Source: Acidobacteriota bacterium (lineage in GTDB: Bacteria > Acidobacteriota > UBA6911 > RPQK01 > JAPXNP01). Taken from it: a DNA stretch of 64,000 nt. The position numbers and the translations under genes were made by a program. The notes below the pieces were generated by a model that was not told the DNA's origin, made no database searches, and worked only from the letters and a program-made list of their open reading frames with translations. The stretch is from assembly GCA_020350445.1 (NCBI GenBank), contig CP070717.1, positions 3,793,904 to 3,857,903 of the forward strand, written 5' to 3'. Position 1 is the stretch's first letter. Each line of letters begins with the position of its first letter. Below, one piece after another: positions 24,893 to 53,062 of this stretch.

Positions 24893-26074
24893 ATGAGCCA
24901 GAAGGAACGGAAAACACCCTTGGTAGACGAGCTTGAGAAGGGGCCTTGGCCAAGTTTTGTCAAGGAAATCAAGAGCGTCGACAACCCCAAGGCGAAGGAT
25001 CTCCTGGGGGTGCTTGAGCGGTCCTACCAGGACAAGATCGGGCACTGGAAACATGGCGGACTGGTCGGAGTCATGGGATACGGCGGAGGCGTCATTGGTC
25101 GGTACAATGATCTTCCTGACGAGTATCCAAACGTCGCTGAGTTTCATACCCTGCGTGTAAATCAGCCCTCGGGTTGGTTTTACACGTCAGATGTACTTAG
25201 AAAACTTTGCGATATCTGGGAAGAGCATGGCTCCGGAATCACCAATATGCATGGTTCAACCGGTGACATCATCTTCCTGGGTTGTTCAACCGAAGAGCTG
25301 GAACCGACCTTTGCAGCATTGACAGAGCTGGGATTTGACCTCGGGGGCTCGGGGTCATGTATGCGGACTCCGAGTTGTTGCGCCGGGATGGCGCGCTGTG
25401 AGTGGGCCTGTTACGACACCATGGGGCTTACCCATGACCTGACAATGGAGTACCAGGACGAGCTGCACCGGCCGCCGTTTCCCTACAAGTTCAAGTTCAA
25501 GATGGCAGGTTGCCCGAATGACTGCGTCGCATCGGTGGCGCGGGCAGATCTGTCGATCATCGGGACTTGGAGGGATGAGATCCAGATTGATCAGGAGGCT
25601 GTCAGGGAGTACGCCAACTCCTCGGAATTGAACGTACTCGAAGATGTCGTTGAGCGCTGTCCGACCGGGTGCATGAGGTACAACGGACAGCTCGAGATTG
25701 ACGACGAGAACTGTGTGAAGTGCATGCACTGCATCAATGTGATGCCGAAGGCACTGGCTCCGGGCAAGGAGCGCGGAGCAACCATTCTGATCGGATCGAA
25801 GGCGCCGATTATTGGTGGTGCGCTGCTCTCGTCGGTACTGGTTCCTTTCCTGGAGATGGAGCCCCCGTACGAAGACCTCAAGGAGCTGATCGAGGCAATC
25901 TGGGATCTCTGGGCTGAACATGGCAAGAACCGTGAGAGAGTTGGGGAATTCATCCAGAGGGTTGGCCTGGGCAACTTCTGCGATGAAATCGGACTGGACG
26001 TGGCACCAGAGATGGTCATCCAGCCGCGTACCAACCCCTACATCTTTTACGAAATGGACACTGCGGATTATTGA
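24893..26074 (+). CDS. dsrA: Dissimilatory sulfite reductase alpha subunit
   Basis: 393 aa with siroheme/[4Fe-4S] Cys clusters and a ferredoxin-like insert ([12 protein letters not shown]). Directly followed by dsrB and dsrD. Confidence 0.9.
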
Positions 26075-26109
26075 CCGGTAGGTCAGTTGATCTGAAAGGA
26101 GAAGATGCC

Positions 26110-27195
26110 ATGTCGACTAGCGTGAAGAAGAGAGTTACCGATATCGGCCCCCCGCATTACGAACAGTTCCTGCCTCCGGTGATCAAGGAGAATTACGGAA
26201 AGTGGAAGTACCATGAGGTGTTGAAGCCCGGCGTCCTGGTTCACACCGCCGAGTCAGGGGAAAAACTCTATTCGGTTCGGGCGGCGACACCACGCCTGGC
26301 CAGCATCCATTCGATTCGACTGTTCGCCGATCTGGCGGACGAGTTCTCGGACGGCTATCTGCGCTATACGAGCCGGAACAACGTGGAATTCCTGCTGACG
26401 GATCCCGACAAGATTGATCCGCTGATCGCGAAGCTGGGTGCTGAAGGCTATCCGGTCGGCGGAGTCGGTGCGGCGATCAGTAACCCTGTCCACACGCAGG
26501 GATGGATCCACTGCCACTCGGCTGCTTCAGATGCTTCGGGGGTCGTGAAGGCCCTCATGGATGAGCTTTGCGATTACTTCACCGGCCAGAAGTTGCCCGC
26601 CAAACTGCGACTGGCCTTTGCCTGTTGTCTGAACATGTGCGGAGCTGTCCACTGTTCGGATATCGCTGTACTCGGAGTTCACCGACGGGTTCCGAAGATC
26701 AATCATGAAACGATTCGGACCCAGTGTGAGATTCCGACGACGGTATCGGCCTGCCCGACGGGCGCGATCCGGCCCACGAGCGTCAATGGAAAGCAGTCGG
26801 TTGAAGTGGTTGAAGAACAGTGCATGTTCTGTGCGAACTGCTACACCGTTTGCCCTTCGATGACCTTGAACGATCCGGAAATGGACGGGGTATCGATTTG
26901 GGTTGGCGGCAAGGTCAGCAATGCCCGGCACGAGCCGATGTTCTCGAAGTTGGCGATCCCATACCTCCCGAACAATCCGCCTCGGTGGCCCGAGGTAGTC
27001 GATGCGGTCAAGCACCTCGTCGAGATCTATGCCGCTAATGCCCGAAGGTACGAACGCATGGGCGAGTGGATTGAACGGATTGGATGGCCGAAGTTCTTCG
27101 AAATGACAGATCTCGAGTTCACGAAGTACCACATCGATGACTTCAGTCATGCCGGTTTGTCTTTTCGGACGTCACTTCACTTCAGGCATCAATAG
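26110..27195 (+). CDS. dsrB: Dissimilatory sulfite reductase beta subunit
   Basis: Start at MSTSVKKR with a GGAGAAG RBS. Cys clusters ([25 protein letters not shown]) typical of DsrB. Confidence 0.9.
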
Positions 27196-27204
27196 GGAGA
27201 GGAA

Positions 27205-27444
27205 ATGAGCCAAGAGGTAGGTGTCGAAGAAGTCGCTGAGGCGATGTTTGACCTGGTCAAGCAGACCCATGGGAAGAAGAACCTGAAGCCGATGGATCTG
27301 ATTAAGGCGATGATCCAGAAGTTCGGCGATGACCGGTGCTCTAAACCACTCTGTAAAAAGGCCATTCGGGAACTGATCGACGGTGGACGATGTATCTACT
27401 CTTACATTGGGGGAAGTTACGTCACTCTGCCACCAGAGGAGTAG
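27205..27444 (+). CDS. dsrD: DsrD (small winged-helix protein of reductive-type dsr operons)
   Basis: 79 aa, Lys-rich helix-turn-helix plus C-terminal …CIYSYIGGSYVTL resembling the DsrD YWSSGSTTMYGL wing. It sits 9 bp after dsrB. Confidence 0.8.
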   Translation: MSQEVGVEEVAEAMFDLVKQTHGKKNLKPMDLIKAMIQKFGDDRCSKPLCKKAIRELIDGGRCIYSYIGGSYVTLPPEE

Positions 27445-27590: not shown

Positions 27591-28976
27591 ATGACCATGC
27601 CAGTAGCACAGTCGCCTAATACACCTCGGATCATCGTGGCCGGACTCGGCGGAGACAGTGGAAAGACCCTGGTCTCAATCGGAATCTGCCGGGCCCTGGT
27701 TGAACGGGGGATGACCGTTTCGGGCTTTAAGAAGGGACCCGATTTCATCGATTCCGGATGGCTCCAGAAAGCCACTCGCCGTCCGGGCCGAAACCTGGAT
27801 ACCTTCCTAATGTCGGCCGAGGCGATCCGGACTTCGCTGGCTCGTGAAGCGGAGCGCTCGGATGTATCCGTCATCGAAGGGAACCGGGGACTCTTCGATG
27901 GCTTCGACTCATCCGGAACGCATTCGACAGCTGAATTGGCGAGAGTGACCCAGACCCCTTGTGTACTGGTCGTTGATGTCACCAAGGTGACCCGGACCGT
28001 GGCCGCCCTGGTGAAGGGTTGTCTGATCCTGGAGCCGGATGTGCCCCTGGCGGCCGTCATTCTCAATCGGGTCGCGACCGCCCGCCAGGAAAGGGTTATT
28101 CGGGAGTCACTTCAGCAGAGCGTCGGAATCCCCGTGGTGGGTGCGCTTCCTCGGCTGGATCGAGAGTATCTGCCGGGCCGGCATCTTGGCCTGCTGACAG
28201 CTGCTGAGCACCCCCAGGTTGAAGAAGTGCTCGACTTCATTGCCGCAACCATCCGGTCTTCGGTGGATCTCGATGCTGTCCTGAAGGTAGGTGCCTCAGC
28301 CAGGTCCTGGCCAGTCGTTGCGAGTCCCGGGTACCAGAAGAAACCCGCAAGTGTCAGGATCGGCGTTCTACAGGACGCGGCGTTTTCCTTCTACTACCCC
28401 GAGAACCTTGAGGCCCTCGAGCGGGAGGGGGCGATACTTCAGCCGGTCTCACCCCTCGGTGAAAGCGAGTTTCCCCAGCTTGACGGACTCTATGCCGGCG
28501 GGGGATTTCCCGAGGTTTATGCCGAGGCGCTGGCGGGGAATACCGGGTTTCGAGAAGGCCTTCGGCGGGCCTTGGCCGACGGGCTGCCGGTGTGGGCGGA
28601 ATGTGGTGGGTTGATTTACCTCTCCGAGGGCCTGCGGCTCGGGTCCCACTCGGTTCCGATGGCTCAGGCCCTGCCGGTCCATGTGGAGCAGTTGCCCAGG
28701 CCTCAGGGCCATGGCTACGTGGAGGGGGTCATCGATCGCGAGGACCGTCTCTTTGAACTGGGAGAGCATTTGCGGGGGCATGAATTTCATTACACCCGGA
28801 TCTGTGAGGGCAGTGCACGGCTGGCAACGGTCATGGATTTGAGTCGGGGTACTGGGATCGGAGCGGGTCGGGATGGCATTCGATGCGGATCTGTCTTTGC
28901 CTCCTATACGCACCTGCATGCTTTGAGTTCCGACAGATGGGCGCAGCGACTGGTGGCTGCGGCCGGAGGAAGATGA
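27591..28976 (+). CDS. dsrN: DsrN (cobyrinic acid a,c-diamide synthase homolog, proposed siroheme amidase)
   Basis: CbiA/CobB architecture: N-terminal ATPase (VAGLGGDSGKTLVS) plus C-terminal glutamine amidotransferase (WAECGGLIYLS). Located in the dsr operon. Confidence 0.8.
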   Translation: MTMPVAQSPNTPRIIVAGLGGDSGKTLVSIGICRALVERGMTVSGFKKGPDFIDSGWLQKATRRPGRNLDTFLMSAEAIRTSLAREAERSDVSVIEGNRGLFDGFDSSGTHSTAELARVTQTPCVLVVDVTKVTRTVAALVKGCLILEPDVPLAAVILNRVATARQERVIRESLQQSVGIPVVGALPRLDREYLPGRHLGLLTAAEHPQVEEVLDFIAATIRSSVDLDAVLKVGASARSWPVVASPGYQKKPASVRIGVLQDAAFSFYYPENLEALEREGAILQPVSPLGESEFPQLDGLYAGGGFPEVYAEALAGNTGFREGLRRALADGLPVWAECGGLIYLSEGLRLGSHSVPMAQALPVHVEQLPRPQGHGYVEGVIDREDRLFELGEHLRGHEFHYTRICEGSARLATVMDLSRGTGIGAGRDGIRCGSVFASYTHLHALSSDRWAQRLVAAAGGR

Positions 28977-29443
28977 TGAGTTTGCGCCAGCGTTTCATCG
29001 ATAGTTTTGATCGAGGCAAGAATGGGGATCTCGGCGATTTCGTCCGGTTGATCTCAAAGGAACCGGCGGTCGTCAGACACCTGTTAGGCATGACCTATCA
29101 CCCCGATCGCTCTAATCGGGAACTGGCGATCCGCGGACTGGGAATCGCGGCGAAACACCATCCCGAACTCGTTCAGGAGGTCATTCGCCGGCTGGTCTGG
29201 GCGATGAATGATGAGTCTGGAACCAATGGTTTGACGGCTCCAGACGTTCTCTGCGCAGTCGCTCGGGAGATGCCCGAGATTCTGCTGCCGTTTATTGCCG
29301 ATTTGAGCCGCCTGGCAGGAGATCCCGGCCTGCACAACGGGTTGAAGGCGCTCCTTCGCCAGATTTCCGAGGCGTTTCCTGGTGAGGTTGGACAGCGAAT
29401 GGGGAAGGAGTTGAGTCGGGGAAGAAGGAGGATCTCTCGATGA
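28972..29443 (+). CDS. Hypothetical HEAT-repeat (PBS-lyase-like) protein, translationally coupled to dsrN
   Basis: Start ATGATG overlaps the dsrN stop. Repeated alpha-helical RxLxxLGI-type HEAT units. The listed ORF's upstream extension lies inside dsrN and is probably not coding. Confidence 0.4.
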
Positions 29444-30009
29444 GCCGGTTGAGGGAACGTGTCAACTTGGAGAAGTGCCGCCAACTGGCTGAGGCCAATC
29501 CCGATTCCGCCGGGGCCCATCTCAGGCTGGGAACCGCACTGATGAAGGTGGGATTTGCCGGCAAGGCCGAGGCTTCGCTGGCTCGTGCTGTGGAGCTGGA
29601 TCCGACCTGCATCCAGGGCTGGGTCAACCTCGGAGGACTGCGGCTGGGCCGTTGGGATTTTCAGGGTTGTATCGAGGCAAATCGACGGGCTTTGGAACAG
29701 CAGCCCGATCTCGTTGAGGCTCTGTTCAATAAGGGCCTGGGGCATCTGTACGCCGGAGATACCGAGGCCATGTTGGATTGTTTTCGTCGGGTTGTGGAGT
29801 TGGATCCGGGCCGCGGCGGCGGCCAGTACTTTCTGGCTGTTGGGTTGCTGGCGACCGGTGACATAGCGGGTGCCGAGGAGCACCTGGGTCGGGCCGTCGG
29901 GCTGGGATATTCGCCCCATCCCGACTTCGTGAAGGCCATGGAGCGTGTTGCGAGGGAAGACTCGGTGACGGTCTTGGAGTTCGGTCCCGAGTCGAAACAT
30001 TCGGCGTGA
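29440..30009 (+). CDS. TPR-repeat protein
   Basis: Four to five TPR-like units (AHLRLGTALMKVGFAGKAEASLARAVELDP …). ATGA overlap with the preceding ORF. Confidence 0.55.
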   Translation: MSRLRERVNLEKCRQLAEANPDSAGAHLRLGTALMKVGFAGKAEASLARAVELDPTCIQGWVNLGGLRLGRWDFQGCIEANRRALEQQPDLVEALFNKGLGHLYAGDTEAMLDCFRRVVELDPGRGGGQYFLAVGLLATGDIAGAEEHLGRAVGLGYSPHPDFVKAMERVAREDSVTVLEFGPESKHSA

Positions 30010-30048: not shown

Positions 30049-30366
30049 ATGGCTGATTTTGTTGTTGGCGACATCACACTCGATATCGATGAAGACGGCT
30101 TCATTCAGCAGCCTGAGGCTTGGAATGAAGCGATTGCGAAAGCTCTCGCTAAGACCGAGGGAGTAGATGAACTGACTGAAGCACATTGGAAAGTAGTCAA
30201 CTATCTGCGCGACTACTACCTCGAGTTCGGTATTGCCCCAATGATCAGAAAGCTCTGCAAGTCGACGGGATTCAAACTGAAGGAAATCTACGAACTCTTT
30301 CCATCGGGACCGGCGAAGGGCGCCTGCAAGGTCGCCGGACTACCGAAACCAACCGGTTGCGTCTAG
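30049..30366 (+). CDS. dsrC: DsrC (TusE/DsrC-family sulfur carrier)
   Basis: 105 aa ending with the invariant DsrC arm …GFKLKEIYELFPSGPAKGACKVAGLPKPTGCV (both conserved Cys). Confidence 0.9.
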   Translation: MADFVVGDITLDIDEDGFIQQPEAWNEAIAKALAKTEGVDELTEAHWKVVNYLRDYYLEFGIAPMIRKLCKSTGFKLKEIYELFPSGPAKGACKVAGLPKPTGCV

Positions 30367-30435: not shown

Positions 30436-30978
30436 ATGTTTGAGTTGATCTGTCAGCATCGAGAGAGAATTCTCGAGACCTGGTTGACGAAGATCCTTTC
30501 GTCTTATCCTGAACAGACGGCGAGCTTCTGGAGCCGCAATCCCAATCCGTTCGCCAATCCCGTAGGAACTACCTTCAAGAGCCGGGCGGAGCGAGTGTTC
30601 TCGGCACTGCTGGATGGAGCGGAGCCCGGGGAACTCTGCCTGGCTCTGGAGGACATCCTCAAGATCCGAGCGGTTCAGGAGTTGACGGCTGCTGAATCGG
30701 TCGGCTTTGTGTTTCTGCTCAAGGATGCCGCAGCTGAGGTTCTGGCGGAACACCTCTCAGATCCGGGCTCTCTGAAACAGTTGATCAGGTTCTCGCGGCA
30801 GGTCGATCTGGTGGCGCTCGAAGCATTCGAGATTTTCGCCCGAAGCAGAGAACGTGTATTTGAACTGCGGGTCAAAGAACTGAAGCGCACGGGTTTTCTT
30901 CTTCTGAAGCGTTCGAGTCAGATCGCTGGAAACTCCGATGGTACCCACTCTCCGACTGACCCGGGGGAGGTTCAATGA
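30436..30978 (+). CDS. RsbRD_N-like domain protein, possible DsrT
   Basis: The N-terminus (ICQHRERILETWLTKIL) resembles the RsbRD N-terminal domain found in DsrT, which precedes dsrMKJOP in several sulfate reducers. Its stop overlaps the dsrM start. Confidence 0.4.
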   Translation: MFELICQHRERILETWLTKILSSYPEQTASFWSRNPNPFANPVGTTFKSRAERVFSALLDGAEPGELCLALEDILKIRAVQELTAAESVGFVFLLKDAAAEVLAEHLSDPGSLKQLIRFSRQVDLVALEAFEIFARSRERVFELRVKELKRTGFLLLKRSSQIAGNSDGTHSPTDPGEVQ

Positions 30979-31976
30979 ACGTTTTGGTTGCACTTACTGC
31001 CTTGCTCCTGCTCGGTGGAATCGTCTATCTGGGGGTTGAGATTGCTGGTTTAGAGTTTCTTTTTGGCGTCATCATCCCCTATGCAGCGGTTCTGACCTTC
31101 CTGATCGGCCTGGTGATCCGGGTGATCAGCTGGGCCCGGACTCCGGTCCCGTTCCGGATCACCACAACCTGTGGTCAGCAACGGTCCCTTTCCTGGATTT
31201 CTCCGAACAGGATAGACAATCCTTCGACTACTCTCGGAGTACTGGGCCGGATGGCTCTCGAGATCTTTCTGTTCCGCTCTCTGTTTCGCAATACGCGAAA
31301 CGAATTGAGGGAAGGGGAGAACCGGCTCGTGATCGGTCCGAGCAAATGGCTTTGGCTCATGGGCCTGGCGTTTCACTGGTCGTTCCTGATTATCCTGCTG
31401 CGCCACCTGCGGCTTTTTGTAGAACCGGTGCCACAGATCACCCTTCTGATACAGAGCCTTGACGGGTTCTTTCAGGTGGGTGTCCCGGTGGTCTATTCCA
31501 CCAGCCTCTTGTTCGTGACGGCGGCGACGTTGCTCTTTGTTCGCCGTATCGTCCTGCCCCAGGTTCGCTACCTGTCCCTCCCGACTGACTACTTTCCGCT
31601 CTTCCTGCTGATTTCCATCGCGGGGAGTGGGATCATCCTGCGGCACTTCATCAAAATTGACATTGTCCGGGTCAAGGAAGTCGTACTCGGTTTGATGACG
31701 TTTCGACCGGAAGCTGGTGGCCTGCCCGTCCTGTTCTACTTTCATCTTTTCCTGGTTTCGGTCCTTCTTGCTTACTTCCCCTTCAGCAAGCTGGTCCACA
31801 TGGCGGGAGTCGTACTGAGTCCTACTCGGAATCTCGCCAATAACAACCGTCGAATCCGTCACGTCAATCCCTGGGATTATCCGGTGAAGACCCATACCTA
31901 CCAGGAATACGAAGAGGAATTCAGGGGGAAGATGATCGGTGCCGGAATTCCCGTCGAGGAGGAAGACAATGGCTGA
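30975..31976 (+). CDS. dsrM: DsrM (NarI-like heme-b membrane subunit of the DsrMKJOP complex)
   Basis: 333 aa with 5-6 TM helices and conserved His residues in TM helices. Followed by dsrK. Confidence 0.85.
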   Translation: MNVLVALTALLLLGGIVYLGVEIAGLEFLFGVIIPYAAVLTFLIGLVIRVISWARTPVPFRITTTCGQQRSLSWISPNRIDNPSTTLGVLGRMALEIFLFRSLFRNTRNELREGENRLVIGPSKWLWLMGLAFHWSFLIILLRHLRLFVEPVPQITLLIQSLDGFFQVGVPVVYSTSLLFVTAATLLFVRRIVLPQVRYLSLPTDYFPLFLLISIAGSGIILRHFIKIDIVRVKEVVLGLMTFRPEAGGLPVLFYFHLFLVSVLLAYFPFSKLVHMAGVVLSPTRNLANNNRRIRHVNPWDYPVKTHTYQEYEEEFRGKMIGAGIPVEEEDNG

Positions 31977-33600
31977 GCCCCGTCCGGATGAGATGGAATT
32001 CTACAAGCAGGAGGAGTTGGTACAGATCGACTACACACCTCCTCAAACCAGCTGGATGAGAACACCGGTGGATTTCAGGCCTGGGAGCTGGATTTATCCT
32101 GCCAAGGCTCGCCACCTGGAATACCTCGGACTGGCGAACCCTCGGGAATGGTCGCCTCTGGACGAGGACTGGAAGCTTCCGGAGGATTGGAAGGAGATCA
32201 TCTTTGAAGGAATGCGGGAGCGGCTGAACAAGTACCGCTCTTTCAAACTGTTCATGGATATCTGCGTGCGCTGCGGGGCCTGCGCGGACAAATGTCATTT
32301 CTACATCGGCGGTGGGGATCCGAAGAACATGCCCGTTTTGCGGGCTGAATTGCTCAGGTCGGTGTATCGCAGGGATTTTACCCTGGCCGGAAAGCTGGTG
32401 GGGAAGTGGGTGGGTGCCCGTGAACTGACTCCCGAGGTTCTCAAGGAATGGTTCTACTACTTCTTCCAGTGTACTGAATGCCGGCGCTGCTCGGTCTTCT
32501 GTCCCTATGGGATCGATACCGCCGAGATTACGATCATGGGACGGGAACTGCTCAATCTTCTGGGCCTGAATGTCAACTGGGTGATTGAGCCGGTCTCGAA
32601 CTGTTTCAGAACAGGGAACCACCTCGGCATCCAGCCTCACGGGTTAAAGGACACGCTGGAGTTCTTTGCAGAAGATATCGAAGAGGTTACGGGCATCCAG
32701 GTTGAAATCCCGATCAATCGAAAGGGTGCCGAGATTCTATTCGTCACGCCTTCAGGAGACTTTCTGGCGGACCCGGGGACCTATACCTGCATGGGTTACA
32801 TGATGCTCTTTCACGAGCTGGGGCTGGACTATACCTGGAGTTCCTACGCTTCGGAGGGAGGGAACTTCGGCCTGTTCACCTCCCACGAAATGATCAAGCG
32901 GCTGAATGCCAAGATCTACGCTGAGGCCAGGCGCCTCGGTGTCAAGTGGATCCTGGGCGGAGAATGCGGCCACATGTGGCGGGTCCTGCACCAGTACATG
33001 GACACGATGAATGGTCCGGCGGACTTCCTCGAGGTGCCGAAATCACCGGTGACCGGAACGGTCTTCGAGAACGCAGCATCAACGCGGATGGTTCATATCA
33101 TCGAATTCGTTGCAGATGCGATTCGAAACAACAAACTCCGGCTCGATCCCAGTCGAAACGATGGACTGCGGGTCACCTTCCACGATTCCTGTAATCCCGC
33201 CAGAAGTATGGGTTTTTTCGAGGAGCCGCGTTACGTGATCAAAAGCGTCTGCAACCACTTTTGCGAGATGCCAGAAAACACCATTCGGGAACAGACCTTC
33301 TGCTGTGGCGGTGGGGCAGGGCTGGGAACCGACGAGAATATGGAAATGCGCCTGAGGGGTGGGTTCCCGAGAGGAAACGCAGTCCGCTACGTTCAAGAGA
33401 AACATGGAGTCAATCGGCTCGCCTGCATCTGTGCGATTGATCGGGCAACCCTGTCAACGGTTTGTGACTACTGGGCACCGGGTGTGGAGGTGACGGGAAT
33501 TCATGAGCTTGTCGCCAACGCGATGGTGATGGAAGGCGAGAAGGAACGGACCTTGAATCTTCGACTCGAACCGATCGAACGAGGGGAGGGTGTCTCATGA
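31969..33600 (+). CDS. dsrK: DsrK (HdrD-like Fe-S/CCG-domain catalytic subunit)
   Basis: [4Fe-4S] motifs (CVRCGACADKCH, CTECRRCSVFCP) and CCG-type Cys clusters (FCCGGGAGL). ATG at 31969 has a GAGGAGGAAG RBS; the listed ORF uses an upstream GTG. Confidence 0.85.
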   Translation: MAEPRPDEMEFYKQEELVQIDYTPPQTSWMRTPVDFRPGSWIYPAKARHLEYLGLANPREWSPLDEDWKLPEDWKEIIFEGMRERLNKYRSFKLFMDICVRCGACADKCHFYIGGGDPKNMPVLRAELLRSVYRRDFTLAGKLVGKWVGARELTPEVLKEWFYYFFQCTECRRCSVFCPYGIDTAEITIMGRELLNLLGLNVNWVIEPVSNCFRTGNHLGIQPHGLKDTLEFFAEDIEEVTGIQVEIPINRKGAEILFVTPSGDFLADPGTYTCMGYMMLFHELGLDYTWSSYASEGGNFGLFTSHEMIKRLNAKIYAEARRLGVKWILGGECGHMWRVLHQYMDTMNGPADFLEVPKSPVTGTVFENAASTRMVHIIEFVADAIRNNKLRLDPSRNDGLRVTFHDSCNPARSMGFFEEPRYVIKSVCNHFCEMPENTIREQTFCCGGGAGLGTDENMEMRLRGGFPRGNAVRYVQEKHGVNRLACICAIDRATLSTVCDYWAPGVEVTGIHELVANAMVMEGEKERTLNLRLEPIERGEGVS

Positions 33601-33992
33601 GTGATTACGGAAAGATAATCCTTGGGCTCGTCGGGTTCCTCGTCCTGTGCACTTCTCCGTTTTGGTATCAGGTCCTGAGTTCCGATGGGCTCCCGGCTCC
33701 GGAGCTGAAACTGCCGGTCGGAGAGCAAGGCTGTGTCGAATCCAAGGAGTATATGCGGGCTCTCCACATGGACCTGCTCAATCGCTGGCGAGATGCCGTC
33801 GTACGAGATGGAGAGCGTATCTATGTCTCGACCAGCGGCCGAGAGTATCAGATGAGTCTCACCGGTACCTGCCTGGGTTGCCATACCAGCCGGGCTGACT
33901 TCTGCGATCAGTGCCACACCTATGTCGGGAGCGAGAATTACTGCTGGAGCTGTCATGTTGAGCCGATCAACCTCAGAGTGGAGGCGAGATAG
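33597..33992 (+). CDS. dsrJ: DsrJ (periplasmic triheme cytochrome c)
   Basis: Signal anchor plus three CxxCH motifs (CLGCH, CDQCH, CWSCH) in 131 aa. Confidence 0.85.
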   Translation: MSDYGKIILGLVGFLVLCTSPFWYQVLSSDGLPAPELKLPVGEQGCVESKEYMRALHMDLLNRWRDAVVRDGERIYVSTSGREYQMSLTGTCLGCHTSRADFCDQCHTYVGSENYCWSCHVEPINLRVEAR

Positions 33993-33994
33993 GA

Positions 33995-34783: not shown

Positions 34784-34790
34784 GGATTTC

Positions 34791-41715: not shown

Positions 41716-41988
41716 ATGACTGAGATTGTGGCGGGGACAGGGCAATTGAACGACAGGACACTGTTGTCGAGGGTGGGCTACCTCCTGTTTGGATTCCTCC
41801 TGCTCGGTGGATTCATCCTCCTGCTCGCGATCCCGGTATCGTGGCCGGGAGCCTGGGGAGAGACGTTTGACCACAATTTCGAGACGGGTCGGACAGCATC
41901 CAGCCTCTTCTACACGGAAGTCGAGGGTTACTGGGAGCTCGAAGCGGCTCTGAAGAAAGACGTGGTGGACGGCTCGATTAACCGGTAG
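41716..41988 (+). CDS. Small hypothetical membrane protein (one TM helix)
   Basis: 90-aa ORF with a hydrophobic segment LLFGFLLLGGFILLLAIPV. No recognisable family. Confidence 0.3.
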   Translation: MTEIVAGTGQLNDRTLLSRVGYLLFGFLLLGGFILLLAIPVSWPGAWGETFDHNFETGRTASSLFYTEVEGYWELEAALKKDVVDGSINR

Positions 41989-43582: not shown

Positions 43583-43609
43583 GGTCTGTTACTCCCTCTG
43601 AGCTGGTCG

Positions 43610-45850: not shown

Positions 45851-45853
45851 GAT

Positions 45854-47104
45854 TTAACCTCGAACGACTTGGACGGCTTTCATGGCTGCTGCCGTCGCGT
45901 CACGGACAGCTTCAGCGACACCCACAGGCCGGCGGACACACCCGGCCGGAAAGATGGCAGATTCCTCTGCGTTCTCGACGACTAGGAAACCATGCTCATC
46001 GGCAGCGAGATTTCCGCTCAGCCGGGGAACCTGCGGAACCATCCCCGTTGCCAGGATCACCAGGTCGACAGGCTGCTGGATGCGCCGGCCGGTCAGCACG
46101 TTCTCGGCTTCGACGACAATCCGGGATTCTCCATTCCGGGGATAAACCTTTCCAACCTTACCTTTGACAAGGTGCAGCAGGGGATCCTGCTGGGCTTCAA
46201 GGTAGAAGTCCTCCATTCGACCTGGTGCCCTGAGATCGATGTAGAAGAGATAGATCTCCGCTTTGGGATACTGTTGCCGGATATAGCGGACCTGTTTGAG
46301 CGAGGCCAGGCAGCAGACAGAGGAGCAGTGTCGAAGGTAGTTCTCGTCGCGGGATCCGGCACACTGGATGAAGGCAGCTGACTCGATTGGCTCTTGATCG
46401 GAAGGGCGGAGAATCTGTCCCCCAGTCGGGCCATCGGGTGCAGCCAGACGCTCAAGTTCGACGTTGGTGATGACGTTGGGGTTCGACGCGTAGCCAAGGT
46501 TGTCAATCTTTTCGGGAGGGTAGGGCCTCCAACCCGTCGCCAGGACCACGGAATCGATCTCGATTTCAAATGTCTCAGGCTGCATCTTCAGATCGACCGC
46601 ATCATTGGGACATTCGGCGATGCACTGGCTGCACTCCTCTCCCAGGCAGTCAATCGGATCAATAGTGAAGATCGGCGGATACGCTGCGGGAGAAGGGAAG
46701 TAGATGGCCCTCGTCTGGCTCAGGCCATAGTTGAAAGGGTCGGGCCGTCGGACCGGGCAGAACGGGATACAGGCCCCGCAGGCGGTGCACTGGTCAGTGA
46801 CAAAGCGGGGCGACCGGGTGATCGAGACGGTGTAGTTCCCCGGTTCTCCTGAAATGCTGTGGACCTCGGATTGTGTGTAACAGGTGATCTTCGAGTTGTT
46901 CCTGAGCTGTCGAAAGTTAATCTCGAGGCCACAGGATGGAGGACAGAGTTTCGGAAAATAGAGGTTCATCTGAGAGACACGACCGCCCAGGTAGGGCTGC
47001 TTCTCGATCAGGACCACCTCCGCTCCCGCTTGAGAAGCTTCCACGGCGGCGGAAATCCCGGCGATCCCGCCCCCTACGACGAGCACGCGTTTACTACTAC
47101 CCAT
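45854..47104 (-). CDS. qmoA: QmoA (HdrA-like FAD flavoprotein)
   Basis: 416 aa with N-terminal VLVVGGGIAGISAAVEASQAG and HdrA-type Cys motifs (CTACGACIPFCP). Immediately upstream of qmoB. Confidence 0.85.
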   Translation of the reverse strand: MGSSKRVLVVGGGIAGISAAVEASQAGAEVVLIEKQPYLGGRVSQMNLYFPKLCPPSCGLEINFRQLRNNSKITCYTQSEVHSISGEPGNYTVSITRSPRFVTDQCTACGACIPFCPVRRPDPFNYGLSQTRAIYFPSPAAYPPIFTIDPIDCLGEECSQCIAECPNDAVDLKMQPETFEIEIDSVVLATGWRPYPPEKIDNLGYASNPNVITNVELERLAAPDGPTGGQILRPSDQEPIESAAFIQCAGSRDENYLRHCSSVCCLASLKQVRYIRQQYPKAEIYLFYIDLRAPGRMEDFYLEAQQDPLLHLVKGKVGKVYPRNGESRIVVEAENVLTGRRIQQPVDLVILATGMVPQVPRLSGNLAADEHGFLVVENAEESAIFPAGCVRRPVGVAEAVRDATAAAMKAVQVVRG

Positions 47105-47150: not shown

Positions 47151-47999
47151 TCAACGTGAATAGGATTTACTGGTCACTTCGGTTTTCTGTCGGACACTCT
47201 TGCGCACCTCGCGCCGGATCTCGACGGTGTCTTCGCCGAAAAGGCAGAAGCGAAGCCATCGGTAACCCAGGCGCAGGAGGGCTCGATCCTCCCTGCGGGC
47301 CTCTTCTACCGTCACCTCATCGATGGAGAATTTCTGCAGGAAGGTGCTTTCAAAGACGAAACGACGGAACTTGTCCAGGTCGTAGAGCACCATCACCAGC
47401 ATGTTCATCTTCGACGGCTCGAGTTGCCCCCCGTCGAGGAAAAAAGGATGCAAACTGATCTGCTTGAAGTCCTCTCCGTGGAACTCATACTTCTCCGCCC
47501 CCTGGTTTCTGATCCATTCCCGAATGGTCTGCCGGGTGTTGGACGAATGCCCTTCGCAGGGATCCTCTTCGATAAGGAAGAAGAAGGGTTCATCCGTCTC
47601 CTCTCCCGGAGAGGCCAGTCCAACGGGATACATCCGGCAAGCCCAGGGGCGGTCGCTGTAGACCAAACATCCTTCCGGGCGCACGAATGGACAGCTTCTT
47701 CGCTCATCATTCTGCATCCGGAGTAGAACCACGGGGAACTTCTGCTGAGCGGAGAAGGGAAGGATCGTGTACCGGTCGAGGAACTCGGTCGATGAGATCT
47801 TCAAGCCGGTCCGGAGGCGGAGGACATCGTAAGGAGTCAGCGCGATGTTGACATCGGCGCAGCACTGATTGAAACAGCCGAGACCAGGCTTGCATTGAAA
47901 GTCAAAAGCATCAGATTCCTTGAATCTGGGTGCGTCTTCGAGAATTGAGAGTGGAAACTGAGTCGTTGAATCATTCATCGGGCTGTTCATCTTCCTCAA
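47151..47999 (-). CDS. YkgJ/UPF0153-like Cys-cluster protein (CxxCxxCC putative Fe-S or zinc chelating domain)
   Basis: Motif CKPGLGCFNQCCADV near the N-terminus plus a second Cys group (CPFVRPEGCLVY…CRMYP). 282 aa. Lies between aprA and qmoA. Confidence 0.45.
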   Translation of the reverse strand: MRKMNSPMNDSTTQFPLSILEDAPRFKESDAFDFQCKPGLGCFNQCCADVNIALTPYDVLRLRTGLKISSTEFLDRYTILPFSAQQKFPVVLLRMQNDERRSCPFVRPEGCLVYSDRPWACRMYPVGLASPGEETDEPFFFLIEEDPCEGHSSNTRQTIREWIRNQGAEKYEFHGEDFKQISLHPFFLDGGQLEPSKMNMLVMVLYDLDKFRRFVFESTFLQKFSIDEVTVEEARREDRALLRLGYRWLRFCLFGEDTVEIRREVRKSVRQKTEVTSKSYSR

Positions 48000-48312
48000 G
48001 AATGAATTCTCGGAGCGCCGTTGCCGACCAGACCGGTAAGGGGCCGGACGTCCCGGTGCGCGGATTGAACCTCAGCCGGTAGGATGCAGAGACATCGAAC
48101 TTCTCGCGCATCCTCTGCCAACCCCGAACGAAATAGGGACACTCGTCATTGAAACAGACGTAGAACCTCTCGGGTTTCCAGGCTGAATCGGGAGGAGGTA
48201 TCCAGGCGGTTAGTTTTTCAGAGCAGTGTGGACAAGTCGGAACTTCCCCTTCCATTTCCTCTCCCTCGGGACGCATTTCCCAGGACTCAACGGCGTGGGA
48301 TGTTGAGACCAT
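47971..48312 (-). CDS. Small hypothetical protein with a four-Cys zinc-ribbon-like motif
   Basis: CPHC … CFNDECP arrangement and an acidic C-terminus. Overlaps the start of the downstream ykgJ-like ORF. Coding status uncertain. Confidence 0.3.
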   Translation of the reverse strand: MVSTSHAVESWEMRPEGEEMEGEVPTCPHCSEKLTAWIPPPDSAWKPERFYVCFNDECPYFVRGWQRMREKFDVSASYRLRFNPRTGTSGPLPVWSATALREFILEEDEQPDE

Positions 48313-48371
48313 CCCCGGATGAGAAGCCGCCCCGTCCTGGAAGACGGGGCGGTAGACGATGAACGCGGTGC

Positions 48372-50248
48372 TTATGGAACCAGTTCGATGATCGGACGCT
48401 TGATCATCTCCCAGGTGCCCTTGCCCGGATCATACTTGCAGTTGACGAAGACCTTCCAGTCGTCCTGCATCTTTGGCTGGTCGGTCCTGAAGTAGTAACC
48501 GGGCCACCGGGTTTCCTGCCGGAAGAGAATACTCCGGACATGGGCTTCGGCCTGCCACATCCGGTGGATGTTCTCCCAACAGCGCATCAACTCATGCAGA
48601 TCCTCGGCCGCGAGCTTCTTCGAGTCCTCGCGGAGGAAGTCGAGCAGGCTCAAACCCTTTTCCAGCAACGTGGCACTCGTCTTGAAGGCGCTCGAGACAC
48701 CACCGGCATACTCATCCATGATCTTCTGCAACCGGAACATGAACTGCTTCGGTCGAATGTACTCAGGGTTGATATCCGGGTCGGTACTCTTGCCGCTGAA
48801 TTCATCGAACAGTGCCACCGGGGCCAGAACCTGGGCCTTGAGTTGTTCGACATCGGGCGATGCCTCAGTTAGAGCGGCACCCTGCTCGACAATGTAGCGG
48901 ACTGCTGACTTCGCGGCAATCCGCCCCTCGGCGTGGGAGCCCGAAGAGAACTTGTGACTCGAAGCACCCGAGGCGTCACCGGCGCAAAAGACTCCGGCTG
49001 TCGTCGCCATGTTGCAGTAGCCCCACTTGTACTCCTCAGGAGCCATGTCTTCGGGACCGCTGACCCAGGCGCCCGAGGCACCGGAATGGGAGCCGATGAA
49101 GTACGGTTCCGCTGCAGCGATTTCAGAAGGCTTCTCATCGGGTGCGACATTCGTCGCCGCCCAGAGAATGGCTTGTGAAATGGTCATATCGAGGAAGTCT
49201 TCCCAGGCTTCCGACTCCAACTCCTTGAGCTTTCTCTTCCGCTTCTTCTCATCCGGCTCGGCGGTCGACAGATTCTCGATCGCTTCGGCCGTCTGCATGA
49301 AGATCGGGCCCTTGCCTTCGTCCACATCGAGCATCATCAGGTAATTGCGGAGGTTGGCCGGAACCGGTTTGACCTTTCCATAAGGGACCCAGTTCTCCAA
49401 CTCAGGCCGGCGGGTCTCCATGTAGTTCTCACCGAGTGCGTTCGTCGCCGAGACTTGAAGAGAAGGAACCAGGCTCCAACGGGACCGTAGGCATCCTTGA
49501 AACGGACCGGGATGAACCGGACTTCCTGGCAGGTCATCTCGGCACCTGCCTGGATCGTGAAGTAGGCACTGGATCCAGAATTCCAGGGTGGGTACCAGGC
49601 TCGGCCCAGTCCTTCACCCGAGGACCTGGGCTTGAAGACGTGAACGGCACCGCCCATGGCGACCAGCGTCGCCTTCGCCTTGAATACGTAGAACTTGTTC
49701 TCCCGGACGCTGAAACCGATCGCGCCGGCACAGCGGTTTCCTTCCATCAAGGGGCCGACAATAAAGATGCGCTCGTAAATGTTGTCCAGGCCGATCGCGT
49801 TCTTTGCCGCTTCGGCGACAACGACCTTATAGGATTCGCCGTTGATCATGAGCTGCCAACGGCCTTCGTGGACGTACTTGCCCTCCTCGTCGGTCCAGAT
49901 CGGCAGTCCCCACTTTTCGAAGAGATGGACCGACGAATCGACGTGGCGCGCAATATTGGCAACCAGGTCTTCGCGGGTGATGCCCATCAGGTCATTCTTG
50001 ACGTAACGGACATAGTCTTCGAGCGTGTTTTCTCCGTCTTTGAGCCCGACATACTGGTTAATGGCTGAAAGTCCCATGGCCACGGCGCCGCTTCGATCCA
50101 CGGCGGCCTTGTCGACCAGGGTTACGGTGAGATTGTGCTTCTTGGCCCAGTAGGCAGCCTCCACAGCTGCGCCGCAAGCGGCCATTCCTCCGCCGACGAT
50201 TAGCAGGTCGGTACGGACTTCTACAGTTTCAAAATCGGCAACTTTCAT
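48372..50248 (-). pseudogene. aprA: Adenylylsulfate (APS) reductase alpha subunit aprA, interrupted by an apparent 1-bp frameshift near 49450
   Basis: ORF 49337-50248 encodes the AprA N-terminus (FAD motif DLLIVGGGMAACGAA … GPVGAWFLLFK). ORF 48372-49421 in another frame encodes the rest (…VSATNALGENYMETRRPELENW… to the C-terminus). The two frames join between the FK and VSATN codons, around plus-strand gagacttgaag. Confidence 0.75.
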
Positions 50249-50325: not shown

Positions 50326-50763
50326 CTAGAGCTTGGCAACTTCCGACAGACCGAGAGAGGCCGGTTCGGTGAAGAGTGCAGGTCCATTCAGGTCATCGTT
50401 CGAGACCTCCCAGCCGCCGTTGGGAACAGCAGTGCCTTCGGGGGTCGTCCGAATGGGGAATTTGAATCGTTTGAGGGTTCCGTTGCGAAACTTGAGTGTC
50501 CACATGATCGCGTCAGTGCTGCGCATGCAGGTCACACTCGCTCCGAGAGGCACAAAGTCAGCATAACCGCGGACTTCAACTGCCTGAGTGGGGCAAATCT
50601 TGACGCAGTTGTAACACTCCCAGCACATCGCAGGATCCCGTTTGTAGGCCTTCATGATGTCTGCATTGAGCACCATCAGGTCATTCGGGCAGATGTGCTG
50701 GCAAGCCGTTTTGTCGAGCGCCTTGCAGCCGTCGCACTTTTCAGGATTCACGTAGCTTGGCAT
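50326..50763 (-). CDS. aprB: Adenylylsulfate reductase beta subunit
   Basis: Start at MPSYVNPEKCDGCKALDKTACQHICPNDLM (GGAGGG RBS upstream), with a second cluster CWECYNCVKICP and a C-terminal tail. 146 aa. Confidence 0.85.
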   Translation of the reverse strand: MPSYVNPEKCDGCKALDKTACQHICPNDLMVLNADIMKAYKRDPAMCWECYNCVKICPTQAVEVRGYADFVPLGASVTCMRSTDAIMWTLKFRNGTLKRFKFPIRTTPEGTAVPNGGWEVSNDDLNGPALFTEPASLGLSEVAKL

Positions 50764-50989
50764 GTTCCCCTTCCCTCCTTGGTCTTGTTCTAATGTCTTC
50801 AGACACCAGTTGCGAAACCGTTGCGCAGAGACCCTTGCGAGTCGCCGCGGATACACCGTTACCGTTCTAATTTCAAAGCAATTTACATACCTATCAGAGG
50901 CAATGTAGAAAACCCGGGAATATTAAAGAGGGAGTTAAATTAAAACCGAATGCTGGGGCAATAGGCTCAGGATGGTGGGTTAAGTTCCA

Positions 50990-51090
50990 CATCGAAAGGG
51001 TTCAACCCGCTTGAGCCTCCGGGTCCCAGTTGTTGGAGGGGAGGTGAGACTGGCGTCCTGGGTGGAGAACTCAAGCGGGTATCGGCTGAA
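50990..51090 (-). promoter_or_regulatory. Structured segment in the long aprB upstream/leader region (nested inverted repeats)
   Basis: 10-bp inverted repeat cccgcttgag / ctcaagcggg separated by about 60 nt, with an inner cctcc/ggagg pair. It lies within the 440-bp intergenic region between arsR and aprB, which also holds an AT-rich stretch next to aprB. Confidence 0.25.
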
Positions 51091-51295
51091 GGAAGGGGAG
51101 CCTCGGCGCATTTCTGGTGGTGGCAACCAGAGGGGGGCGCAACTATCCGGCCGGCTTGGAGGAGATTGGCCGGCATAGCGGCTCGCAGGCGACCTTCCAG
51201 GGGGAGGAGAGTGATCTGCCTATTCCTTCCTTCAGACGAGTTGGGAAAGTCCACTGAATATCGATCGATCCCGGCTTGAAGAGCGGTCCAAAGCA

Positions 51296-51676
51296 TCATT
51301 CTGGACCTCCCTCAGCCTGGGAAGCGGTTCGAGAATTGAAGCGCTGACGCTGGCCAGGTTCAAAATGGAGCTGGCAGCAGCCCAGATTGATGGCGTTCAA
51401 TTTCCCGGGAACAAGGGTGCTCTCGGTGGCCCGGTAGATCACCGATTTTCCCTGGCGATCACCTTTGACCAGGCCTGCCTCGCGCAGGACCCTGAGATGG
51501 TGGGACAAAAGACTTTGTTCGACAAACAGCCTTTCGCTCAACTGGCCGACCGAGCAGGGTTCAAGCAAAAGCACCTCCATCACCGCCAGTCGTGTTCGGT
51601 CAGAAAGAACCTTTAGCTTGCCCGCACAATCGAGTTTCTTACTCAAATTGTCCACCTGTCGAGCGGTCCACCGCAC
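51296..51676 (-). CDS. ArsR/SmtB-family transcriptional regulator
   Basis: 126 aa with an ArsR-type wHTH (LSDRTRLAVMEVLLLEPCSVGQLSERLFVEQSLLSHHLRVLREAGLV). Located between sat and aprBA. Confidence 0.75.
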   Translation of the reverse strand: MRWTARQVDNLSKKLDCAGKLKVLSDRTRLAVMEVLLLEPCSVGQLSERLFVEQSLLSHHLRVLREAGLVKGDRQGKSVIYRATESTLVPGKLNAINLGCCQLHFEPGQRQRFNSRTASQAEGGPE

Positions 51677-51802
51677 CCCTCACATGAATACTAGTTCATG
51701 TGATATACAGAAATCAATGTCCTTTCGATCCCTTTCATTTACAAGTACGTTACTAGTCTGAATTGTGTCGTAACTTTTCCAAAAAAACTGAGTGAAAAAC
51801 AC

Positions 51803-53062
51803 TTATGTCAAAACCGCCTGAGACTGATAGTAGTGCATCAGGATTTCAGCGACTTCCGGTCTGGAAAACTCGACGGGCAATGGCTGCCCCTGCGACAACA
51901 TTTCGCGTACCTTGGTACCCGAAAGGAACACGTAATCTTCTTTCTTGTGATCGGGATGGTCACGCATCATGACCACCTTGTTGAGTCGCTTGGACCAGGC
52001 GGTGTGATCAGCTTCGAAGATCTCGATCTCAAGGGCCTCCTTTGGAACTTCATCATGGAAGATGGCCTGAGCATCGAACGGGCCGTAGTAGGAACCGACT
52101 CCGGCATGATCACGCCCAACGATCAGGTGGGTGCAGCCACTGTTCTGCCTGAAGACCGCATGAAGGACTGCCTCCCGGGGGCCGGCATAGAGCATGTCGA
52201 ATCCATAGCCCGTAATCAGCACTGTCTTCGGCGGGAAATACAGTTCCACCATCTTGCGGATACAGGCATCCCGAACGTCGGCAGGGATATCTCCCGCTTT
52301 GAGCTTTCCGAGAAGCATGTGAATGAGGATTCCGTCGGCCTTGACTGCTTCGTAAGCCATGCGGCAGAGCTCTTCATGGGCGCGGTGCATCGGGTTGCGG
52401 GTCTGAAACGCGACAACCTTCTCCCAGCCCAGAGCCGACATTTCAGCGCGAATCTGGTAGGCCGTGCGGAAGGTTTCCGGAAAATCGCTTTCGAAATAGG
52501 AGAAGTTCAAGACTTCGATCGGTCCCGAAATACAGGTCTTGCCGCTGCTGTTAAAGGCTGCGACACCGGGATGGTTCGGATCCTGGGTCCGGAAGATCTT
52601 TCCGGTCATCCGTTCCATCTCGTCCGAACTGAACTCTTCGACATCCATCACGGTCTGGATCGCGAGGATGGGGTTGCCGGGTACATTCGGATCCCGCAGC
52701 GCAATCCGTTTCGCTTTTCCAATCACCGAACCATCGGGAACGACATTGAGAATTGGGATAGGGAAAAAGAGGCCCGCTTTCGTGTGCATCGAGTCAGCGG
52801 TTGCCAGGGCGTCCGACCTGTCCATGAATCCGGTCAGGGGATTGAAGTATCCGCTCCCGAGCATTACGGCATTGGCTGCCGCTGCCGAAGAAACAGTCAG
52901 TGAAGGCAGTCCCGCCGCTTCCTCGAGCAGAGCTTTCCGGCGATTACTGTCCTGGATGTAAAGTGGGTTTAGTTCATCTGATCCATGCGGTCTGATCATG
53001 AGTTTGCGCTCCAATTCAGCTTCAGTTCTGGGTTCAGGAATCCGCTGCCGAGGGTCCTCCAT
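51803..53062 (-). CDS. sat: Sulfate adenylyltransferase (ATP sulfurylase)
   Basis: QTRNPMHRAHEEL and GRDHAGVGSYYGPFDAQ motifs. 419 aa if the first Met is used; the alternative start MIRPHGS is 21 codons downstream. Confidence 0.9.
   Translation of the reverse strand: MEDPRQRIPEPRTEAELERKLMIRPHGSDELNPLYIQDSNRRKALLEEAAGLPSLTVSSAAAANAVMLGSGYFNPLTGFMDRSDALATADSMHTKAGLFFPIPILNVVPDGSVIGKAKRIALRDPNVPGNPILAIQTVMDVEEFSSDEMERMTGKIFRTQDPNHPGVAAFNSSGKTCISGPIEVLNFSYFESDFPETFRTAYQIRAEMSALGWEKVVAFQTRNPMHRAHEELCRMAYEAVKADGILIHMLLGKLKAGDIPADVRDACIRKMVELYFPPKTVLITGYGFDMLYAGPREAVLHAVFRQNSGCTHLIVGRDHAGVGSYYGPFDAQAIFHDEVPKEALEIEIFEADHTAWSKRLNKVVMMRDHPDHKKEDYVFLSGTKVREMLSQGQPLPVEFSRPEVAEILMHYYQSQAVLT

Follow-up and report, generated by a model that had tools for sequence, protein, structure and literature searches.

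Does the packing of a whole pathway for dissimilatory sulfate reduction into one stretch of a bacterial chromosome reflect recent assembly or acquisition, or is it the customary arrangement of the lineage? The question is raised by a 64-kb stretch of contig CP070717.1 (hereafter the window), which belongs to a 5.13-Mb single-contig metagenome-assembled genome (MAG) of the phylum Acidobacteriota. The initial annotation of this DNA described a near-complete pathway within ~28 kb, proposed that it runs in the reductive direction and suggested that it could be transferred as one unit. The analysis presented here indicates that the region is probably native to the chromosome of an uncultured Acidobacteriota bacterium and encodes canonical Dsr-dependent dissimilatory sulfate reduction, with an arrangement typical of the lineage and neither newly consolidated nor recently mobile. 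Its value is mainly corrective: the window offers a clean, chromosome-level example of a compact acidobacterial cluster type that has been known since 2018.

Organization of the locus

Genes were called by combining an open reading frame (ORF) map with Pfam scans and with NCBIfam scans that use curated cut-offs (Table 1). The sulfate-reduction genes fill the interval from 24.9 to 53.1 kb as two convergent gene strings, and the range delimited in the initial annotation, 24893–53062, extends exactly from the start of dsrA to the start of sat. The order on the plus strand is dsrA, dsrB, a dsrD-like gene, dsrN, a DVU0298-family gene, a tetratricopeptide-repeat (TPR) gene, dsrC, a dsrT-like gene, dsrMKJOP, cysG, dsrM2K2 and a YeiH-family gene. 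The minus-strand string reads, in the direction of transcription, sat, an ArsR-family gene, aprB, aprA, a zinc-finger gene, a CxxCxxCC gene, qmoA, qmoB, qmoC and an OsmC-like gene. Scores above the NCBIfam cut-off are obtained for every gene for which an equivalog model exists, namely dsrA, dsrB, dsrM, dsrK, dsrJ, dsrO, dsrP, qmoC, aprB, sat and cysG. The pathway gene content assigned to this ~28-kb block, with its siroheme-synthesis gene, is borne out by the scans and the ORF map, except for the points on aprA and dsrL discussed below.

DsrC keeps both conserved cysteines at its C-terminus (...GACKVAGLPKPTGCV), DsrJ contains three CxxCH motifs and the siroheme synthase is a fusion of dehydrogenase/ferrochelatase and methyltransferase. 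The coordinates given for dsrB are those of the longest ORF; the TIGR02066 match begins at residue 37 and the start of the gene likely lies near 26110. The 3′ end of the dsrT-like gene overlaps the start of dsrM, and its position matches that in relatives. QmoA and QmoB were named from their HdrA-like architecture and their position: the former is HdrA-like, the latter comprises an HdrA-like region, two Fer4 domains and FlpD. The K2 protein of the dsrM2K2 pair reaches 321 bits against the DsrK model, under the cut-off of 400.

To place the locus among others, a QmoB scan with one genome per GTDB species provided 80 loci, onto which the proteins of the window were mapped; individual comparison loci are cited by number (L013, L118 and so on).

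DsrA type and a putative divergent DsrD

The reductive assignment in the initial annotation hinges in part on the type of sulfite reductase. A neighbour-joining tree of DsrA (Kimura distances, 383 columns, 200 bootstraps, rooted with the DsrB of the window) was built from the window sequence, its nearest matches, 14 genome loci, cluster representatives at 50% identity, archaeal sequences and seven phage DsrA sequences from IMG/VR. As the DsrA entries in the PDB are reductive enzymes only and provide no oxidative reference, the phage sequences, which we take to be the oxidative rdsrA of SUP05 viruses, were adopted in that role. The window DsrA and neighbours that are 84–87% identical to it group with 100% bootstrap support, and the cluster of these neighbours carries Acidobacteriota names. 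Desulfobaccales, Zixibacteria, Ignavibacteria and Elusimicrobiota sequences share a clade with the window DsrA (97.5% bootstrap), at 58–87% identity; where the position after dsrB is readable, most loci of this clade have dsrD or a dsrD-like gene there. P0243 and P0253 join the phage sequences in a clade of their own, supported by 100% of bootstraps, whose members are 46–50% identical to the window DsrA. No branching with oxidative-type sequences was seen, and the reductive type of DsrA is upheld by this tree. The reported absence of dsrEFH from the window likewise stands, as the scanned ORFs of at least 90 amino acids contain no DsrE, DsrF or DsrH domain.

The claim that DsrD is present can be maintained in part: position, a predicted winged-helix fold and a moderate profile match speak for it, whereas a sequence match to Pfam DsrD or to DsrD in the PDB is lacking. 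The ORF in question begins 10 nt past the dsrB stop and its 79-residue product is titled ‘hypothetical protein’ in the source record. Homologues with 44–60% identity are encoded directly 3′ of dsrB in 10 other loci, and the family occurs also in loci of Zixibacteria, Ignavibacteria and Elusimicrobiota. The protein gives no match to Pfam DsrD (PF08679) at E ≤ 0.001, and a search of the family members with PF08679 brought one of 11 to E 0.066. No NCBIfam model is matched, and neither phmmer nor a family profile search retrieved a DsrD chain from the PDB. A single-sequence AlphaFold2 model shows three helices followed by a beta hairpin (H-H-H-E-E; pLDDT 77), and each of its 50 best Foldseek hits is a generic winged-helix domain, none of them DsrD. 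A classical DsrD (Pfam match, E 1e-14) is encoded directly after dsrB in L021 and L027, and when the family profile is compared by hhalign with the Pfam-positive DsrD of L021, a probability of 63% results (E 6.8e-5, 47 columns), with KKAIRELI...YSYIGGSY in register with KKAVQELI...YWSSGSTTY. Position, predicted fold and profile comparison support, without proving, the identification of the 79-residue protein as a divergent DsrD. Surveys that use Pfam DsrD to recognize reductive metabolism would overlook the DsrD-like family of this lineage, and ‘reductive’ or ‘oxidative’ marker calls would be affected.

A DsrL-2-type gene beside sat

The statement that dsrL is missing from the window proved to be wrong. 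A dsrL gene, divergent from sat, lies 609 bp beyond the range considered in the initial annotation, and the argument that the pathway must be reductive for want of dsrL therefore fails. The product consists of a Fer4_20 domain (residues 39–127), a Pyr_redox_2 domain (143–444), a linker of ~80 residues and a Fer4_7 domain (524–573) for two C-terminal [4Fe-4S] clusters, whose cysteines are clustered at 519–535 and 560–572. Within the NAD(P)-binding domain (...TILYRRTRAEMPA...) a YRR motif is found at residue 312. This motif defines DsrL-2, an NADP(H)-specific type found with reductive DsrAB, for which a role as electron donor in sulfite reduction has been proposed (Loffler 2020, PMC7596348). By its motif and domain order the product of the window is predicted to be of the DsrL-2 type and is compatible with reduction. 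It can be likened by these features to the DsrL-2 of Desulfurella amilsii, in which domain order and YRR motif are alike and which also co-occurs with a reductive-type DsrAB (PMC7596348).

The neighbours of dsrL are sat and a gene for a LytS-type histidine kinase, not genes for pyruvate/ketoisovalerate:ferredoxin oxidoreductase, and dsrAB lies 27 kb away in the same window. Among the fetched dsr/apr/qmo loci, those of 11 genomes encode homologues with 44–52% identity, in most cases placed between dsrN and dsrC. The Zixibacteria, Ignavibacteria and Elusimicrobiota copies are part of the operon, whose order is dsrA-B-D-N-L-C-T-M-K. The exact match in the source record is titled only ‘FAD-dependent oxidoreductase’. 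A DsrL-2 that is encoded outside the dsr operon under such a title means that a reported absence of dsrL can be an annotation artefact.

Taken together, the DsrA type, the DsrD-like gene, the DsrL-2 motif and the window devoid of dsrEFH favour the reductive direction, which genes alone cannot prove.

The aprA frameshift

The presence of aprBA requires qualification as well. Both aprB and the two halves of aprA match their models, but aprA is not one intact ORF in the deposited assembly, as a 1-nt deletion near 49452 (TCTCGG^CGACG) splits the gene. The N-terminal half (49337–50248, 303 amino acids) matches TIGR02061 over model positions 1–259 with 421 bits, and the C-terminal half (48372–49421, 349 amino acids), in another frame, covers positions 269–616 with 467 bits. 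The closest relative, L013, reads through the site in a single frame (FKSRATNALGE; ...FLLFKSRATNALGENYME...), and the comparison shows that one base is missing here. The halves are 90% and 82% identical to that relative and contain no further stop codon; all 39 homologous loci that cover both halves (39/39) have a single frame. In the source record the accessions of the zinc-finger protein (UCF36287) and AprB (UCF36288) are consecutive. As no AprA accession falls between them, aprA would appear to have no protein product there and to be treated as a pseudogene.

Single-nucleotide indels are common in long-read assemblies. The frameshift is somewhat better explained as an error of this kind than as a real lesion: the 1-nt deletion, which may fall within a short run of G, is the only flaw in a perfectly conserved gene, and the single-contig MAG was probably built from long reads. 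A search of the protein collection with the repaired AprA gave no match above 86% identity and no intact AprA from the same species. Nothing that bears on the frameshift came from exact-protein look-ups with AprB, either AprA fragment or the zinc-finger protein in two alternative start versions, and no JGI metagenome contig matched the DNA around the site in two exact scans. Short-read contigs from three runs in Logan, 99.6–99.75% identical to the window, cover dsrD to dsrK only; such identity indicates that the population has been sampled elsewhere too, and the single indel in these same-species contigs is intergenic and strain-level. Programmed +1 frameshifting was also considered and rejected, since 39 of 39 homologues are in frame and no precedent is known. 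One base in aprA decides whether the genome is scored as a sulfate or a sulfite reducer, and a check against the reads is needed before any ecological inference.

A separate observation concerns the region just past this gene. A GC-rich stem-loop of 10 bp (CCGCCCCGTC...GACGGGGCGG) with no T tract is located at 48327–48352 on the minus strand, ~20 nt past the aprA stop. Absent from the output of the terminator scan, this element may serve in attenuation or RNA stability between aprBA and the genes that follow. Promoter and terminator scans of the window performed no better than chance.

Host and flanking DNA

UCF36264.1, a protein from a 5,129,482-bp contig of an Acidobacteriota MAG, matches the DsrA of the window with 100% identity, and other UCF362xx proteins of that contig are exact counterparts of DsrC, QmoB, AprB, DsrL, the DsrD-like protein and the zinc-finger protein. 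The host was expected to be non-deltaproteobacterial, for instance acidobacterial, an expectation confirmed by the DsrA matches and by a flanking phosphomannomutase gene (15753–17120). Its product is 100% identical to a protein from a contig of equal length, and its named next-best matches, at 58–70% identity, are all from Acidobacteriota. The flanks are devoted to ordinary metabolism and include genes for OPT transporters, xylonate dehydratase, GDP-mannose metabolism, dapF, mdh, peptidases and extracytoplasmic function (ECF) sigma factors.

The locus and its flanks are alike in composition: their GC contents are 0.570 and 0.574, their tetranucleotide frequencies correlate at 0.97 and no 8-kb window deviates. 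A scan of the window revealed no tRNA gene, flanking direct or inverted repeats were not found, and no integrase, transposase or relaxase domain is encoded among the scanned ORFs. The locus bears no sign of recent transfer or mobility, and the suggestion that it is transferable as one unit finds no support. An ancient lateral spread of the cluster is plausible, as clusters so similar in sequence are found across phyla.

Distribution of the arrangement

Core dsr genes occur no more than 10 kb from qmoB in 28 of the 80 surveyed loci. Linked loci of this kind belong to Gemmatimonadota, Planctomycetota/Pirellulales, Acidobacteriota, Zixibacteria/GN15, Ignavibacteria, Elusimicrobiota and several unclassified bacteria; none was encountered among the sampled loci titled Desulfobacteraceae, Syntrophobacteraceae, Desulfarculaceae, Desulfatiglandales, Bacillota or Nitrospirota. 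In classical Desulfovibrio-type reducers dsrABD, dsrC, dsrMKJOP and sat are located at separate chromosomal sites. Their enzymes and chemistry are the same as here and aprBA and qmoABC are adjacent there too. They lack dsrL (PMC7596348).

A close counterpart is another uncultured acidobacterial MAG, MFD02923.bin.1.166, whose 200-kb contig CAVRSV010000025.1 contains both L013 and L118, which overlap. Order and orientation from aprB to dsrA are conserved over ~27 kb with every accessory gene, including the zinc-finger, CxxCxxCC, osmC, yeiH, dsrM2K2 and cysG genes, and the upstream DASS transporter gene is shared; AprA is 82–90%, DsrK2 81% and DsrP 74% identical. The differences are that sat and dsrL are not found in the ~6 kb fetched beyond aprB, that aprA is intact and that a SulP transporter and a two-component system are added upstream of dsrA.

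Comparable arrangements have been published. Among the peatland Acidobacteria MAGs of Hausmann 2018 (PMC6018796), SbA2 carries all these genes on one scaffold. The MAGs SbA1–7 (Ca. Sulfotelmatobacter and Ca. Sulfopaludibacter) share the phylum with the window and, by their published gene content, have the same set: sat, aprBA, qmoABC, dsrABCDN, dsrT, dsrMKJOP, dsrM2K2, sirohaem genes, DsrL and syntenic genes of unknown function. Downstream of dsrAB they have a dsrL-dsrC pair, whereas in the window dsrL is beside sat and divergent; in addition, the window has DVU0298-family and TPR genes between dsrN and dsrC, and its sirohaem genes are fused into a single cysG. For marine Ca. Sulfomarinibacter (Flieder 2021, PMC8528874) and the bioreactor MAG CO124 (Dyksma and Pester 2023, PMC10564751) the full complement of genes is likewise described, including DsrD and a DsrL-2 with the YRR motif. 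Beside the marine MAGs, an acidobacterial scaffold outside any bin was reported to carry all dsr genes on a single contig (PMC8528874). The resemblance to compact acidobacterial dsr/apr arrangements, proposed from the outset, is corroborated by this literature and by the synteny with L013 and L118. The arrangement is already known and lineage-typical, having been published for Acidobacteria in 2018 and 2021. The initial annotation had reasoned that a clustered order already standard in a deltaproteobacterial host family would refute its reading: the order is indeed standard in the lineage, though that lineage is acidobacterial and not deltaproteobacterial.

A distinct configuration is seen in binchicken_co107_64 (L021) and binchicken_co17_451 (L027), where the dsrA-dsrB-dsrD block is duplicated and flanks sat-aprBA-qmoABC on both sides. 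The copies occupy 1693–4300 and 15981–18600 in L021, and 1825–4440 and 16232–18840 in L027. In each locus both copies score equally in tblastn with the proteins of the window, and L021 encodes the same DsrD twice.

Alternative explanations

Several points tell against the view that the locus is a native one for canonical sulfate reduction. The DsrA tree is distance-based only and the ‘oxidative’ label of its phage clade is taken from the literature; the identity of DsrD is weakly supported by sequence; the analysis covers only 64 kb of a 5.13-Mb genome; direction is unreadable from genes alone, reductive DsrAB with DsrL-2 being present also in disproportionators and having been proposed to run in reverse; and the frameshift leaves the sulfate-to-sulfite branch broken on the sequence as given. 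The latter point opens the way to a reading in which the deletion is real: having lost APS (adenosine 5′-phosphosulfate) reductase, the organism would respire sulfite, thiosulfate or organosulfonates with DsrAB, DsrC, DsrMKJOP and DsrL-2, and sat and qmoABC would be remnants that have not decayed. Acidobacterial MAGs with sulfite-reduction genes only, one of them with a truncated aprB, lend it some substance (Hausmann 2018, PMC6018796), as do the presence of the deletion in the deposited record, which has no AprA accession, and a protein collection whose best match to the repaired AprA stops at 86% identity. Yet the lesion is a solitary one in a gene whose halves, free of further stops, still share 90% and 82% identity with L013, the 39 relatives are all in frame, the remaining pathway genes are all intact, and a 5.13-Mb single contig suggests long reads, from which a base in a short G run may have dropped out. 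A genuine loss is accordingly rather unlikely, if worth bearing in mind. If true, the population would have been caught just after the loss of APS reductase, as a sulfate reducer turning into a sulfite or organosulfonate respirer with sat, aprB and qmoABC still intact.

The pathway might also operate in the opposite sense, oxidizing or disproportionating sulfur compounds: sulfide or sulfur would be converted through DsrMKJOP, DsrC and DsrAB to sulfite, and by AprBA and Sat to sulfate, with DsrL as the electron acceptor. Such a possibility has been raised for Acidobacteria (Hausmann 2018, PMC6018796; Flieder 2021, PMC8528874), a reductive-type DsrAB is used in this manner in Desulfurivibrio (cited in Hausmann 2018, PMC6018796), and a DsrL is encoded. 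It appears improbable all the same, for this DsrL has the motif and domain order of the NADP(H)-specific type 2, the proposed donor for sulfite reduction; a DsrD-like activator is predicted, and DsrD is missing from organisms with an oxidative rDsrAB; DsrA falls outside the oxidative clade; dsrEFH is lacking in the window; and metatranscriptomics showed sulfate reduction by a related acidobacterium (PMC10564751). Least probable is a recently acquired genomic island, the 28-kb block having moved as one unit. Gemmatimonadota, Planctomycetota and Acidobacteriota do share accessory genes and Apr, Qmo and Dsr proteins that are 60–85% identical, which speaks for past lateral transfer; against a recent event stand the uniform composition, the missing tRNA gene and flanking repeats, the lack of mobility domains among the scanned ORFs, and the preservation of the gene order in one other acidobacterial species whose DsrA belongs to the same cluster (87%-identical representative). 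A native, reductive locus therefore remains the preferred reading.

A proposed mechanism

A reductive scheme can be drawn up from the established biochemistry of the enzyme families. Sulfate would be taken up, possibly via the adjacent DASS transporter, and turned by Sat into APS, which AprBA would reduce to sulfite with electrons from the membrane complex QmoABC. DsrAB, presumably aided by the small DsrD-like activator, would place sulfite onto DsrC as a trisulfide, which DsrMKJOP would then convert to sulfide in a reaction coupled to the quinone pool (menaquinone). Stimulation of DsrAB sulfite reduction has been shown for the DsrD of A. fulgidus (Ferreira et al. 2022). DsrN and CysG would supply the sirohaem(amide) cofactor, and DsrL-2 could pass electrons from NADPH to DsrAB. 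DsrM2K2, YeiH, OsmC, the zinc-finger/CxxCxxCC pair, the TPR protein and the DVU0298-family protein are conserved partners in the locus.

Neighbouring genes and other features

The DASS transporter gene is divergent from dsrA and just upstream of it, and a homologue of 596 amino acids is encoded upstream of dsrA in L118 and L119. The protein is a candidate sulfate importer. Two separate pairs of genes for an ECF sigma factor and a zf-HC2 anti-sigma factor are situated in the upstream flank, at 9856–10727 and 21565–22583, the second of which adjoins the DASS transporter gene on the side away from dsrA.

Synteny extends to most accessory genes. The DVU0298-family gene is syntenic in L081, L118 and L120, and the TPR gene in L081 and L082; in L118 the TPR position holds a gene for 199 amino acids without a Pfam match. 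The dsrM2K2 counterparts in L013 are 81% and 57% identical, the higher value being that of DsrK2, and yeiH is syntenic in L013, L067 and L076. OsmC-like genes lie beside qmoC or sat in nine loci of the Acidobacteriota/Gemmatimonadota/Planctomycetota cluster type (L001–L013). In the 80 qmoB loci the CxxCxxCC gene is found 33 times and the zinc-finger gene 29 times; the two form a conserved apr/qmo-linked pair (47151–48255 here) in 27 loci. The pair is located between aprA and qmoA in Acidobacteriota, Gemmatimonadota, Planctomycetota, Ignavibacteria and others, and after qmoB in loci of Desulfobacterales and Desulfatiglandales.

Table 1. Features of the dsr and apr-qmo-sat gene strings and adjoining genes in the 64-kb window
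Feature	Coordinates	Strand	Basis
DASS/SLC13-type anion transporter, two TrkA_C domains	22643–24445	-	Pfam CitMHS, Na_sulph_symp, TrkA_C; NCBIfam DASS
dsrA, dissimilatory sulfite reductase alpha subunit, reductive bacterial type	24893–26074	+	TIGR02064, 566 bits (cut-off 393)
dsrB	26071–27195	+	TIGR02066, 505 bits (cut-off 341)
Putative divergent dsrD-like winged-helix protein, 79 aa	27205–27444	+	Position, predicted fold, moderate profile match
dsrN, CobB-type amidase (siroheme amidation)	27591–28976	+	CbiA + GATase_3; cobB family, 416 bits; position
DVU0298-family protein	28883–29443	+	NF045662, E 3e-13, below its cut-off
TPR-repeat protein	29440–30009	+	Pfam TPR families
dsrC	30049–30366	+	PF04358; TIGR03342 (TusE/DsrC model), 125 bits (cut-off 53.5)
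dsrT-like gene	30436–30978	+	RsbRD_N domain; directly upstream of dsrM
dsrMKJOP membrane complex	30975–35951	+	All five subunits above NCBIfam equivalog cut-offs
dsrM	30975–31976	+	492 bits (cut-off 300)
dsrK	31939–33600	+	740 bits (cut-off 400)
dsrJ	33597–33992	+	153 bits (cut-off 100)
dsrO	33995–34783	+	299 bits (cut-off 200)
dsrP	34791–35951	+	447 bits (cut-off 350)
cysG-type siroheme synthase	35971–37788	+	NF007922, 430 bits (cut-off 400); Pfam
dsrM2K2 paralogue pair (M2 37795–38736, K2 38733–40334)	37795–40334	+	Nitrate_red_gam + CCG domains
YeiH-family membrane protein (putative sulfate/sulfite exporter family)	40351–41670	+	PF03601, E 4e-54
OsmC-like protein	41978–42379	-	PF02566
qmoABC (C 42419–43582, B 43610–45850, A 45854–47104)	42419–47104	-	qmoC: NF038018, 405 bits (cut-off 300)
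CxxCxxCC (YkgJ-like) Fe/Zn-binding protein	47151–47999	-	PF03692
Ogr/Delta-like zinc-finger protein, 94 aa from an ATG preceded by a ribosome-binding site	47971–48255	-	PF04606; identical to UCF36287.1
aprA, split by a 1-nt deletion	48372–50248	-	TIGR02061, two frames
aprB	50326–50763	-	TIGR02060, 194 bits (cut-off 136); identical to UCF36288.1
ArsR/SmtB-family regulator, between sat and aprB	51296–51676	-	HTH_5; NF033788, 76 bits
sat, ATP sulfurylase	51803–53062	-	TIGR00339, 379 bits (cut-off 323); PUA_2 + ATP-sulfurylase
dsrL, type 2 (NADPH:acceptor oxidoreductase partner of DsrAB), 578 aa	53671–55407	+	Domain order, YRR motif, context of homologues

Annotation around sat is irregular in the source record. 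Between AprB (UCF36288) and DsrL (UCF36290) a single accession, UCF36289, is assigned to the interval 50857–53062, yet both arsR and sat are contained there, and the sat translation from the ATG at 53062 is absent from the protein collection. Either the record uses another sat start and omits arsR, or it leaves one of the two genes without a product. A 110-residue ORF in the same interval (50967–51299) has no homologues and is probably not a gene.

At the far end of the upstream flank, approximately 13 tandem copies of an 8-nt unit (CCGGTTAG/CCCGTTAG) occupy positions 2549–2652, in an intergenic location just upstream of the gene for an OPT-family oligopeptide transporter (2640–4610). The repeat could be slippage-prone or regulatory.

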